Origin: a bacterium
Lineage (GTDB): Bacteria > Zhuqueibacterota > Zhuqueibacteria > Oceanimicrobiales > Oceanimicrobiaceae
Direction: 5' to 3'
Assembly: GCA_037446635.1 (NCBI GenBank)
Contig: JBBIIG010000091.1
Span: 1-12,363 of the forward strand
Length of the DNA: 12,363 bases
Part shown: positions 9,001 to 12,000 of the stretch, piece after piece
Position numbering within the stretch: position 1 is the stretch's first letter
How the letters are laid out: each line of letters starts with the position of its first letter
Program-made: the position numbers

Positions 9001-12000
9001 ATCCGCGCTACACGGTTGGAGAAAGCCTCATTCCTCATTTTTGGAAATATTGCGAATTGACCGGCGTCGATAAAAAAATTGCAGCTGATGGGTTTATCCA
9101 AAAGTCCGGCGGCACCGTGATTTGGAACGGCGTGATCCGCCAGATGCAGTTCAAGGACTTTGGCTACCCGCGTCCGGCGCTGCATGTGGAGCGCGACCGC
9201 TTCGATCACATTCTGCTGGAACACGCCCGCGAACAAGGGGTGCAAGTCTTTCAAGAAGTCGCCGCCGCCAGCATCGATCTGGATCACGGCGAACGGACAA
9301 GCGTGCTGTATCGTCCCAATGGCGAGAAAACTTCCGCTGAAATTGGGTGCCGTTTTATCGTCGATGCCAGCGGCCAGCACGCGCTGATCGCCCGGCAGCT
9401 CGGCATCCGCGTCATCGATGAGGGGTTTCGCTTCATGAGCATCTGGGGGTATTTCAACAATTCCAAATACATCGCGGCCGATGGCCGCGCCTACCCGTTC
9501 GCGAAGCTGCGCGACATTCCGCCCACCACGTTTGTGACCAACGTGGACGGTTGGGGATGGCTCTGGCACATCCCGCAGCGAGAGAGCACCAGCGTCGGCC
9601 TCGTGCTGCCGCAGGAACAGATGAAAGCCATCAAGGGATCGGATGAGGCGCTGGAGGGGTACTTTCTGCGCCGCTGCCGCGAAATCCCCTATCTCGATCG
9701 CCTGTTGGAAGGGGCCGAATATTGCGAGGGCAGCTTTCACGTGATTCGCGATTATTCCTACCGCCCGACGGAGCTTGCCGGGCCGGGCTATTTTCTCATC
9801 GGCGATGCTGCCGCTTTCACCGATCCGATTTTTTCCATCGGGGTGGTGCTGGCCATGTACTCGGCGTATCTCTCGGCCTGGGCCATCGATCGCTCCTTCA
9901 AGCAGCCGCAGCGCACCGCGGGCAACCAGGCGATTTTTGCCAAACAGTTCATGACCCGCCTGGAAGCCAGCCGCGCGCTGGCCCTGCCGCGTTACGGTTA
10001 CGGCGGCGACGAAGGGGAGATGGTCAAAAAGTCGATTCAATTTGAAACTTCGCTTGAGCAGGAATTGATGTACGTGGTATCGACTCTAACCACGCGCTCG
10101 GAGAATTTTATTGAAATGTGCCGCAAGAAAGAAGGCGGTATGATCACCTCCAGCAAATATCGCAAGCTTGCGGAGATAGCTTTTTAATTTAGCCAGGAGA
10201 TTAAGGAGGAAGTTATGTCCAAACGACTAAAAATTGTTCTCATAGTGTTGGGCGTGTTTGCAGGGCTTGGTCTTTTGCACCTCTGGCAAAACGTCGGCTT
10301 TGAAAACCTGGGCTTCGGCTCGAAGCAGGCGGCAGACGAGTCCAAATTTCGTGTGGGCTTTTTGCCAGTAACCTGACACCTCACGTGCCCCGTGACCGAC
10401 TGGATCAACACCAACATGGTCGGTAAGGGGTTCTTTGAACCCGTGCGGTTCAGCGGCTGGCCGGAGTTGAAAGAAGCGCATCTCTCCGGCAATCTTCCCG
10501 GGACCTTTATTCTCGCGCCCATGGCTATGAAATTACGGCAACAAGGCGTGCCGATTAAAATTGTTTACTTGGGGCATCGCGATGGCACCGCCTTGATGGT
10601 GCACAAGGATTCCAACATTTACTCGTTTAAGGACTTGAAAGGAAAGCGCATCGCCATTCCCAATCGCTTCTCCAATCAGTATTTAATTATCTTCAAAGGC
10701 TTGCAGGATTACGGGATGACCGTTAACGATGTAACTCTTTTAGAAATGCCGCCGCCGGATATGCCCGCGGCTCTATACGCCAAAGCCGTAGATGCCGTTA
10801 TCGCTGGCGAGCCATTGATGGCGCAAACCGAGCTCGATGGCTACGGCCGCGTGCTCTATCAAGCGAAGGAACTCTGGCCCAATTTCATTTCCTGTGTGCT
10901 GGCCGTTGAGGAACGCGCGATCAACGAGCATCCGGAGTGGGTGCAAAAATTGGTGGATGGTATCGCCAAAAGCGGCAAATGGCTCGAGGCCGGCATGGAG
11001 CATCGCATGGAGGCCGCCGACGCGGTAGCTCAGCGCTATTACAATCAAAATCCACGGCTGCTGCGTTTTGTTCTGAGCAAACCGCCCGATCGCGTGACCT
11101 ATAACAATCTGCTCCTCGCGAAGAAAGATTTTGAGCAGATTGCAGATTTGGCGCTCAAAGCCGGTATCCTCGATGGCCCCATCGCGTTCGAAGAATATAC
11201 CGACACCCGCTTTTCGGAAAAGACTCACGGCACCGTTCCCTACGATTGGGAGGAACCAAAATGAAATCTCGCATCGAAGCGGTTCTGTTGCCGTTAACCG
11301 TCGCGGCTCTGTTTGTATGCGGATGGCACTTCCTGGTAAAATCAACCGGCAGCGAAATCTTTCCCACTCCGCCGCAGGTGATAGCCGGGATGGTGGAGCT
11401 TATTCGGCACGGGGTGCTGGTTAAATATGTCATTGCCTCGCTGTTCCGCGTCTCCGCCGGTTTTTTGCTGGCGCTGGTGGTGGGCATTCCCTTCGGCCTG
11501 TTGCTGGGGTGGTTTGGCCGCGCATTTTTTGCGTTTAATCCGATCATCCAGTTGCTGCGTCCCATCTCGCCCATCGCTTGGATTCCGGTGGCGATTTTGT
11601 GGTTCGGCGTCAGCGATTTGGCGCCTATCTTTCTCATATTTCTGGCGAGCCTGTTTCCCATCACCACGGCGGCCATTGCCGCGGTGCAAAATATTCAACT
11701 GGTCTATTTGCGGGCGGCCAGCAACTTTGGCGTCAAGGGTTTGGCGTTATTCAAAAAGATTGTTTTTCCGGCCGCGCTGCCGCAGATCATCACCGGCGTG
11801 CGTTTGGCGCTGGGGGTTGCCTGGCTGGTGGTCGTGGCCGCGGAAATGATCGCGGTAAACTCTGGGCTCGGTTATCTCATCATCGATGCCCGCAATGCCG
11901 GTATGCGATATGATCTCGTGGTCGCCGGCATGGTGCTCATCGGAATAATCGGCTTAATTTTGGATTTGCTGGTCCGGCGTTTACAGAATCTCGACGAAGT

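Follow-up and report, generated by a model that had tools for sequence, protein, structure and literature searches.

To our knowledge, selenocysteine (Sec, U) is known in transport proteins from only a few rare, anaerobe-bound families. Several described systems come close to the locus analysed here. The NrtABCD and CmpABCD importers have the same fold class, and in the latter CmpA holds bicarbonate by means of Ca2+. Halopyrrole modules of the PltF/PltL/PltE/PltA type consist of an adenylation enzyme, a carrier protein, a dehydrogenase and a flavin halogenase, and we know of no importer of the present kind from halopyrrole clusters. Among NitT/TauT-class binding proteins, the consulted part of the description of the SAO system presents SaoX (NF040735) as a rare selenoprotein with Sec at 191-192 in a UxP motif (10.1101/2022.07.06.499078). 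The remaining binding proteins with Sec that the 2026 inventory lists (PMC13188914, Table 1) are SaoB (NF040727) and BtuF-like CxxU proteins. A protein resembling 3UN6, the Zn-bound S. aureus structure, was modelled with Zn on two Cys and one or two His, according to the excerpt available to us (PMC13592312).

The window, by which we mean the whole stretch of 12,363 nucleotides that was analysed, carries a binding-protein gene with an in-frame UGA, in the following setting:

5789..6934, + strand: acyl-carrier dehydrogenase; the nearest models, neither of them reaching its cut-off, are the prolyl-PCP dehydrogenases PigA and RedW
6999..8573, + strand: stand-alone amino-acid adenylation enzyme (TIGR01733, 404.6 bits, cut-off 317.4)
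8610..8852, + strand: stand-alone carrier protein (PP-binding, domain search)
8883..10187, + strand: flavin-dependent halogenase with the motifs GGGPAG, WLWHIP and FTDPIFSIG, 27 nt upstream of the binding-protein gene
10204..10209, + strand: ribosome-binding site AGGAGG, seen in the sequence 5 nt ahead of the ATG at 10215
10215..11264, + strand: putative substrate-binding selenoprotein of 349 aa (TGA read as U, Pfam, predicted fold)
10374..10376, + strand: in-frame UGA, the predicted Sec54 codon (TGA/Cys alternation and Sec machinery)
10387..10431, + strand: SECIS-like long hairpin, +11 to +55 after the UGA (folding, codon bias of the stem)
11261..12022, + strand: ABC permease (BPD_transp_1), its start overlapping the binding-protein stop (ATGA)
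12059..12363, + strand: 5' part of an alginate-export-family outer-membrane porin, the rest of which lies, by homology, on contig C74 at 2-1093
Contig C74, about 1128-3221, after the porin remainder: ABC ATPase-halogenase fusion (homology, domain match)

The ends of the window contig and of C74 show no exact overlap, and the join rests on an intact copy in another locus (L001). Like the Plt-type modules, the upstream part has an adenylation enzyme, a carrier protein, a PigA/RedW-like dehydrogenase and a flavin halogenase in a row, but the models of those modules stay below cut-off here. The preliminary description had placed a halopyrrole-type gene set directly upstream of the binding-protein gene; the set does adjoin it, whereas "halopyrrole-type" holds only as a resemblance, the dehydrogenase reaching 455 of 500 bits on the PigA model.

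Read with translation table 11, the gene falls into ORFs of 53 aa (10215-10376) and 290 aa (10392-11264). Translation with TGA as U gives a single open frame with U54 within GFLPVT-U-HLTC, and sequence inspection found no AGGAGG-like site upstream of GTG 10392, where the 290-aa ORF starts, whereas AGGAGG stands before ATG 10215; the earlier merging of the two predicted genes (g03972 and g03973) into one is thus borne out. TGA is also the normal stop of both the binding-protein gene and the permease gene. Contigs from two DNA runs, probably duplicates, span the UGA region, where differences of low share would be hidden, and speak neither for nor against the codon, and a search of sequencing runs listed no RNA dataset holding the gene. 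From sequence comparison, the apparent stop almost certainly encodes selenocysteine.

Over three phylum samples, column 54 is TGA in 58 copies (54 genomes) and Cys in 68, and the alignments of the sampled copies hold no other in-frame stop (TAA, TAG or a second TGA). At this same column TGA was found in 5 of 20 copies examined from one further phylum (that of G005), in 17 of 26 from the planctomycete phylum (that of G047), and in two more genomes in an extra sample of the window's own phylum. The best 80 of 553 GTDB matches gave 76 loci, in which 81 copies span column 54 (TGA 33, TGC 31, TGT 17); the counts in the preliminary description differ, being from another locus set, but the alternation reported there recurs. 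So do the two database observations made there, an invariant Cys in full-length relatives and shorter entries that start just behind it: 103 of 119 database relatives cover the column, all 103 with Cys, and the remaining 16 start 2-23 residues behind it. UGA stands against a conserved Cys, with homology on both sides, in at least 10 examples, and the two codon types alternate within sub-branches merely 40-60% identical. On a quick search tree (not a finished one) with the site masked, the Sec label changes seven times, and at least three of these changes are forced by well-supported branches.

The genome has the Sec machinery that had been listed for it, namely tRNA-Sec (on contig C79) and SelA, SelB and SelD above their cut-offs, SelD with an in-frame TGA of its own. 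SelA exceeded its cut-off in 28/30, 7/7 and 16/16 TGA genomes of the three samples, and tRNA-Sec is present in the two others, so that every TGA genome tested has Sec machinery. Because SelA is frequent in these phyla anyway (219 of 301 in one sample), its presence is necessary yet weak evidence. Half of the Cys-type genomes (10/20) have no SelA above cut-off; this, together with the general frequency of SelA in the phylum, led us to drop the notion of a family in need of Sec machinery (a selenium importer).

The hairpin after the UGA had been considered no more stable than shuffled sequence. This does not hold for the 63-nt fold, which reaches -20.7 kcal/mol (z -3.15 against synonymous-codon shuffles); the earlier null result may be due to short windows, as the energy is just -4.9 for 36 nt and -7.1 for 45 nt. 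The hairpin, which the close relatives share, has a lower stem GCCCC...GGGGU and a middle stem ACCGAC/GUCGGU. Its mean z is -2.41 in 34 TGA copies versus -0.36 in 48 Cys copies, the lower stem forms with p>0.5 in 27/34 TGA copies versus 1/9 same-phylum Cys copies, and stem codons are biased (Pro59 CCY in 33/34, background 0.40; Gly72 GGG in 31/34, background 0.18). Measured against the consensus bSECIS (loop of 3-9 nt with G in position 1-2, 16-37 nt after the UGA, MFE <= -7.5), spacing, loop size and energy fit, but the lowest-energy fold has no G at the first two loop positions. Covariation is weak, with one pair showing a double change and 110 of 500 shuffles scoring as high. The planctomycete TGA copies carry a loop AGUUG 21 nt past the UGA on a 5-6 bp stem in 14/17 cases, as against 0/6 Cys copies; this element agrees with the consensus bSECIS in 14 of the 17, and its stem shows a compensatory C-G/G-C swap in 5 cells, a score reached by 0/500 shuffles. 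Single-sequence folds of five copies with PVT-U-HLAC gave no consistent hairpin (mean z +0.5) and, except in one copy, none at 99 or 135 nt. Rfam had no match over 9900-12363. We conclude that a SECIS-like element is present after the window UGA.

No NCBIfam model exists for the family, and none reaches its cut-off, as had been stated before (SsuA_fam 137 of 163.5 bits, taurine 43 of 304, SaoX 51.1 of 300). The 2026 table of prokaryotic selenoproteins (PMC13188914, Table 1) does not have this family among its 119, and the literature searched, outside which lay BSepDB Table S2, Haft and Tolstoy 2025, Gui et al. 2024 and the bioRxiv supplements, contained no description of the family, the fusion or a halide-specific ABC importer. 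The preliminary claim of an undescribed selenoprotein family therefore stands as far as this table and NCBIfam are concerned, but SaoX precedes it in the fold: the family and the position of its Sec are new, not Sec in the NitT/TauT fold as such. As far as the consulted part of its description goes, SaoX is likewise of the NitT/TauT class, has a Cys in the strand near residue 225 and is an occasional selenoprotein, but it has Sec at 191-192 (TU, UxP) in one species, as against U54 in many genomes, and is a lipoprotein with CC, as against a hydrophobic anchor and SC. The SaoX signature is absent in 66/66 close relatives, which have A/S-G ahead of E199-P200 and SC at 226-227. Within NCBIfam, permease and ATPase come closest to SaoP and SaoA, below cut-off; unlike in the SAO system, the surroundings of the window gene showed no further SAO gene, and a gate Sec is lacking in the permease. 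A SaoP-type selenoprotein was ruled out for the permease, which in 73 relatives has neither an in-frame stop nor a conserved Cys. SaoB and the BtuF-like CxxU proteins share Sec in the pocket of an ABC binding protein, where it is a proposed metal ligand, but their motifs are CU and CxxU, they belong to other families, and SaoB gave no match at E<=0.001.

The assignment to the NMT1/SsuA type was upheld: Pfam places NMT1_2 on the protein with 99.5 bits, an alignment-based AlphaFold model (pLDDT 96.6; merely 36.8 for a single-sequence fold) has 3UN6 as its best structural match, and an NMT1-type domain and fold come together with a cognate permease and ATPase, as in the NitT/TauT class. The model superposes on Zn-bound 3UN6 with Z 37.6 and rmsd 2.0 over 286 residues, followed by NrtA (Z 34.7); the NrtABCD/CmpABCD proteins likewise have an ATPase with an extra C-terminal domain, but they are 15% identical, have no Sec, and carry a binding-protein fold where the present ATPase has a halogenase. 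The best match by sequence and structure is to 3UN6 and clade B CODH-associated binding proteins (E 1e-28, Z 37.6), with which the protein shares LP(I/V)T-(x)-H, GH(H/R)xG and a Cys near 227. It is 24% identical to 3UN6, which has no Cys/Sec54 or Cys58 and has CC replacing SC, and no halogenase link is reported for 3UN6-like proteins in the parts of the sources consulted. The N-terminus is a hydrophobic anchor without a lipobox Cys, and the candidate ligands are found in U54-H55-x-x-C58, G120-H121-R122 and S226-C227. H55, C58, H121 and C227 are invariant in 66/66 close relatives. The 45 distant relatives carry Asp, His or Cys at column 54 and Cys, Asp or Ser at column 226; Ser226 accompanies Cys54 in 6 of the 7 that have the latter, which looks like an exchange of one ligand role between the columns. 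Since the nearest known structure, 3UN6, has Zn bound, Sec is probably a metal ligand in the modelled pocket. It seems likely that Sec54, His55, His121 and Cys227, perhaps with Cys58, would form a 3UN6-like soft-metal site in the cleft.

Permease genes occur in 73/76 loci and ATPase genes in 108/116. Over the 116 loci, the ATPase-halogenase fusion was found in 10/51 Sec loci, decayed in one more, and a separate halogenase-like gene in 9/65 Cys loci; 96 loci have no halogenase in the flanks scanned. Most copies from Thermoanaerobaculia, Chthoniobacterales and planctomycetes lie in three-gene operons amid housekeeping genes. Halogenase-like genes occur in 38/50 holder genomes, a count without a matched control, and adjacency has no sound baseline because hmmscan and BLAST detected halogenase-like genes which a genome-wide search with PF04820 had overlooked in those genomes. 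As judged from sequence, the halogenase link is tighter than adjacency, since the pump ATPase itself is fused, but it concerns a minority of family members. The best 120 relatives of the C74 protein all combine ABC_tran and Trp_halogenase, with ATPase motifs kept, the catalytic Lys in 114/120, W-x-W in 120/120 and F-x-D-P-x-F-x-S-G kept, so that a fusion of the cognate ATPase to a seemingly intact flavin-dependent halogenase has at least 120 relatives. The fused domain in the window's genome has GxGxxG, the catalytic Lys, WxWxIP and FxDPxxSxG. Fusions occur in differing cluster types (carrier-protein, NRPS, PKS); their loci are largely related, which means few independent events, and a metagenome scan with the fusion protein gave one short locus. 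UnbV/ASPIC genes lie in 15 of the 116 loci, UnbU-like genes in 5 and CLC chloride-channel genes in 3; in one sample 11/19 loci had UnbV/FG-GAP matches, in genomes holding about 1.8 UnbV domains per Mb. We take UnbV and UnbU to resemble enediyne cassette genes that need iodide.

We propose that the protein would act as the membrane-anchored periplasmic binding protein of an ABC importer, its UGA being very probably read as Sec by SelB with the aid of the downstream hairpin, a step strongly supported by the sequence comparisons. Gene order and fusion make it highly likely that its partners are the permease behind the gene and the ATPase with the C-terminal halogenase, the porin gene lying in between. 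The metal would not itself be transported but would stay in place to capture a small anion, comparable to Ca2+ for bicarbonate in CmpA. The fusion suggests that the pump supplies halide ions, and our tentative choice for the anion is a scarce halide, more readily iodide or bromide than chloride, which would be handed to the halogenase at the cytoplasmic face; the chain as a whole, from Sec importer and metal trap to halide cargo fed to the halogenase, is plausible enough to be our working reading, if short of probable. More speculative, and rather unlikely in its full extent, is a dedicated high-affinity halide importer of soil and sediment bacteria, with at least two SECIS architectures, whose Sec-ligated metal site catches iodide or bromide for the ATPase-fused halogenase and which also serves UnbV/UnbU enediyne-cassette-like and other halide-using systems. 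That the UGA is a true stop (pseudogene or sequencing error) or belongs to a changed genetic code is extremely improbable: the case for Sec is a comparative one, and the hairpin departs from the standard form here and is not seen in the PVT-U-HLAC sub-branch, but the codon is always TGA, never TAA or TAG, in one column of 58 copies with no other stop, and a changed code is contradicted by TGA as the normal stop of the binding-protein and permease genes. Flavin-dependent halogenases need no metal, and a conserved fusion to one would be hard to explain if the cargo were a soft metal ion or organometallic (Cu(I), Zn, Hg-type) bound by Sec, Cys and His, the fusion being a later local recruitment; the fold class, in the parts of the sources consulted, binds anions such as nitrate and bicarbonate, and the scanned neighbourhoods contained no SCO or cupredoxin gene. 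We regard metal cargo as unlikely, while noting that a thiol- and selenol-rich pocket, Zn in 3UN6, the SaoP and SaoA matches to an organometallic system, a CxxC heavy-metal-binding (HMA-like) protein that follows the binding-protein gene at 3 loci and the Ni import proposed for 3UN6-like proteins in the excerpt seen (PMC6344411) would all agree with it.

Somewhat less likely still is a small organic or S/Se compound (halogenase substrate, organohalide, thiol, sulfonate) bound covalently or by redox exchange at U54/C58. The UxxxC at the start of helix 1 could form a selenenylsulfide, TauE genes lie near 2 loci, and the fused halogenase domain, about 54% identical across clusters, fits a shared substrate, but those clusters make differing scaffolds, sulfonate and taurine models fall far below cut-off, and the neighbourhoods scanned showed no recurrent sulfur-assimilation genes. 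The S. aureus operon encoding 3UN6 is presumably the sulfide-repressed one of the CymR regulon, which would also favour such a cargo. Sulfide repression of an S. aureus operon within the CymR regulon is reported in the part of the source consulted (PMC5480029). A domain that merely regulates the pump, leaving the fusion silent on catalysis, would have parallels in NrtC and CmpC of the same transporter class, which carry a regulatory C-terminal domain (according to PDB titles), and would suit the many family members without a fusion and its decay in locus L006; with the catalytic Lys, W-x-W-x-I-P and the halide-site motif kept in nearly all 120 fusions, we consider it very unlikely.

Common among uncultured Acidobacteriota and Planctomycetota, the family is truncated at the UGA in databases, 16 of the 119 top entries beginning just behind. 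Its natural Sec/Cys pairs, with Cys homologs 70-80% identical, offer material for probing the role of selenium in a non-catalytic binding protein, and the fusion of ATPase and halogenase provides an entry point to what the orphan binding proteins of the 3UN6 type carry. Should the importer take up a halide, the system would explain how halogenases are supplied where bromide and iodide are scarce, and would flag gene clusters for halogenated products for mining.

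When TGA is read as selenocysteine, positions 10215-11264 (+ strand), which encode the NitT/TauT-class binding protein, give a single frame of 349 aa with U54 within GFLPVT-U-HLTC, and translation with table 11 splits the same interval into products of 53 aa and 290 aa. A strong ribosome-binding site stands upstream of 10215 but none upstream of 10392, and the final stop is overlapped by the permease start. As the preliminary description had proposed, g03972 and g03973 are one gene read through an in-frame UGA (10374-10376). The gene has one copy in the genome, where the expected tRNA-Sec, SelA, SelB and SelD were all found, the three proteins each scoring over the cut-off. 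Judged by comparison, the UGA at column 54 (the position of U54) is very likely read as selenocysteine.

Column 54 is spanned by 81 copies in the 76 best GTDB loci (from the best 80 of 553), with TGA in 33, TGC in 31 and TGT in 17, and no other in-frame stop was seen in these copies. Within the window's phylum, the gene is present in 4 of 167 genomes, always with TGA; one of the four is probably the genome of locus L001. When the phylum of genome G005 was sampled evenly, 22 of 401 genomes gave matches, a tally that includes one unpublished genome and carries no conclusion here; the 20 copies examined, which exclude that genome and G005 itself, have TGA (5), Cys (14) or Thr (1). Planctomycetota, the phylum of genome G047, gave matches in 26 of 301 sampled genomes, and the 26 copies besides G047 have TGA in 17, Cys in 6 and Asp in 3. 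Taken together, the samples hold 58 TGA copies in 54 genomes, every TGA at column 54 and with Cys copies beside them in several samples, which bears out the alternation of UGA and Cys claimed earlier. The claim that relatives have Cys there, with shorter entries starting behind it, also stood (103 and 16 of 119 database relatives, respectively). With the site masked, a tree from a quick search required seven changes of the Sec label, at least three of them forced by well-supported branches. Five loci (L009, L010, L015, L017 and L023) carry two tandem paralogous binding proteins, per genome both Sec or both Cys. Among the 50 of the 76 loci tested, SelA was over the cut-off in 28 of 30 TGA genomes versus 10 of 20 Cys genomes, and both TGA genomes without it have tRNA-Sec; two further sets of TGA genomes had it throughout (7/7 and 16/16). 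However, Planctomycetota have a high share of Sec users (SelA over the cut-off in 219 of the 301 sampled genomes), and with such a background SelA in TGA genomes is a prerequisite that is present, not strong proof.

The hairpin after the UGA had been described as no more stable than shuffled sequence; this does not hold, since the 63 nt after the UGA give -20.7 kcal/mol, with a z of -3.15 against synonymous shuffles. The mean fold z was -2.41 in 34 TGA copies versus -0.36 in 48 Cys copies, a test statistic that is overstated because the copies are related. The lower stem probably forms in 27 of the 34 TGA copies, against 1 of 9 Acidobacteriota Cys copies and 2 of 39 other Cys copies, and its codons are skewed at Pro59 (CCY in 33/34, background 0.40) and Gly72 (GGG in 31/34, background 0.18). 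Covariation is weak in the hairpin of the window's group, and the window's loop is without the G demanded by the consensus bSECIS model; the SelD hairpin of the same genome has a GGA loop. A canonical element, a stem of 5-6 bp with an AGUUG loop 21 nt after the UGA, occurs in 14 of the 17 Planctomycetota TGA copies. None of the six Cys copies there has this loop, and three keep the stem, which is largely dictated by the protein sequence. A C-G to G-C pair swap occurs in five sequences of this stem, and 0 of 500 shuffles scored as high; four of the five are kin, and the swap there may be one event. No consistent hairpin was seen in five copies of the sub-branch with PVT-U-HLAC in place of PVT-U-HLTC. 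The comparison shows that, in two groups, a predicted RNA element goes with the UGA.

Table 1 of the 2026 review PMC13188914, in the accessible part of that source, covers 119 families, including those of Haft and Tolstoy 2025, and has SaoB, SaoX and BtuF as binding proteins. The motif is not among them, which agrees, as far as this table goes, with the earlier claim of an undescribed selenoprotein family. SaoX has Sec at 191-192 in one species (Haft and Gwadz, 10.1101/2022.07.06.499078, in part), whereas the protein here has it at 54. The accessible portions of deep-Sep (including Table 3), the BSepDB text (Table S2 lying outside it) and SelCysML make no mention of the family. As before, no NCBIfam model (June 2026) reached its cut-off for the binding protein.

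The gene and its permease lie behind a carrier-protein and flavin-halogenase set, as previously described, in the upstream order PigA/RedW-like dehydrogenase, adenylation enzyme, carrier protein, flavin halogenase. Downstream come the permease and the 5' part of a porin gene, which by homology continues on contig C74; there it is followed by a 697-aa fusion protein, a fatty acyl-AMP ligase and one more halogenase-like gene, the third. The ends of C74 and the window's contig, C91, do not overlap, but the same gene order is intact in locus L001 and genome G205.

Fusion gene in the window's genome
G000:C74:1128-3221 (locus L080), encoding an ABC ATPase joined to a flavin-dependent halogenase; both domains occur together in at least 120 relatives (90% clustering)

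Both domains were present in all of the best 120 relatives, with catalytic motifs kept, and the fusion recurs in clusters of carrier-protein, NRPS and PKS type. Among 116 loci compared, it was found in 10 of 51 Sec loci, with a decayed copy in L006, and in 0 of 65 Cys loci. In 9 of these Cys loci the flanks hold a halogenase-like gene of its own, and in 96 of the 116 loci the flanks hold no halogenase. By gene-content comparison, the locus encodes a predicted complete importer together with the ATPase-halogenase fusion. Our literature search turned up no report of either such a fusion or an ABC importer for halide. The L006 copy (9851-11039) is broken soon after the halogenase domain begins, and the ATPase at L061:9886-11691 has an N-terminal extension of ~340 aa, methyltransferase-like by eye. 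On the flanks of the cluster lie genes for several APH-like phosphotransferases, for lipid A acyltransferase-like proteins, for a glycosyltransferase and a sulfotransferase (window 12-422 and 901-1944; L080 8774-18140), and for a heterodimeric ABC exporter (1941-5773); these flanking genes suggest that the product is a halogenated lipid or glycolipid that is decorated and exported. L080:5214-7100 encodes the Cys version (CERC) of a DUF3179 protein, without in-frame TGA; selenoproteins with UxxC/T are known in this family.

The structure predicted from a 112-row alignment (pLDDT 96.6) matched best 3UN6, a binding protein of S. aureus with bound Zn that we take to be SA0167 (Z 37.6, rmsd 2.0, 286 aligned, 24% identity), followed by NrtA (Z 34.7) and then the regulatory domain of CmpC. 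U54 stands at the start of helix 1, and 66 close relatives all keep H55, C58, H121, R122 and C227. Among 45 distant relatives, column 54 holds Asp (21), His (9) or Cys (7), and column 226 holds Cys (21), Ser (10) or Asp (9); Ser226 accompanies Cys54 in 6 of 7. Both columns would feed one predicted metal site, and it is quite probable that this site includes Sec54. In the accessible part of PMC13592312, the Zn of a modelled 3UN6-like protein is held by two Cys together with one or two His, and the group is placed beside bicarbonate and nitrate binders.

Within the 116 loci, UnbV/ASPIC genes occur in 15, UnbU-like genes in 5 and CLC channels in 3; one sample had UnbV/FG-GAP matches in 11 of 19 loci, against 165 UnbV matches over the 91 Mb of its genomes, or ~1.8 domains per Mb. 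UnbV, UnbU and DUF1702 are presumably counterparts of genes of the enediyne cassette, the chemistry of which needs iodide. In an Ignavibacteria genome (L002:1741-7271), DUF1702, UnbU-like and UnbV/ASPIC genes, a set we take to be enediyne-cassette-like, lie divergent to the importer. At L035:6843-9038, directly behind a UnbV/ASPIC gene, a UnbU/RnfD-like membrane protein continues in frame, with no stop, into a Cys-type binding protein, possibly a second fusion. In the PVT-(U/C)-(H/Q)L(A/T)C branch (L115, L118-L123, L127 and L128), the ATPase gene lies between two permease genes; L120-L122 also have, further on, genes for DUF169 and for a small exported HMA-like protein with CxxC.

The fusion of the pump ATPase to a halogenase is the strongest new clue to the cargo. 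Halogenases use no metal and the clusters with the fusion share a need for halide, and we therefore rank a metal-assisted halide trap, in which a metal site including Sec54 would help to trap the ion, above import of a metal or of an organic or sulfur compound; halide as the cargo is still a tentative reading. That the importer brings in a metal seems rather unlikely, because the halogenases fused to its ATPase use none, although an HMA-like CxxC protein gene follows the binding-protein gene in three loci and counts against halide. An organic or sulfur ligand is more doubtful again, since halide is the shared need of carrier-protein, NRPS and PKS clusters bearing the fusion. Whatever its cargo, the binding protein represents a selenoprotein family that the inventories consulted do not list; its Sec position is new for a transporter, and the family is partly tied to halogenases.
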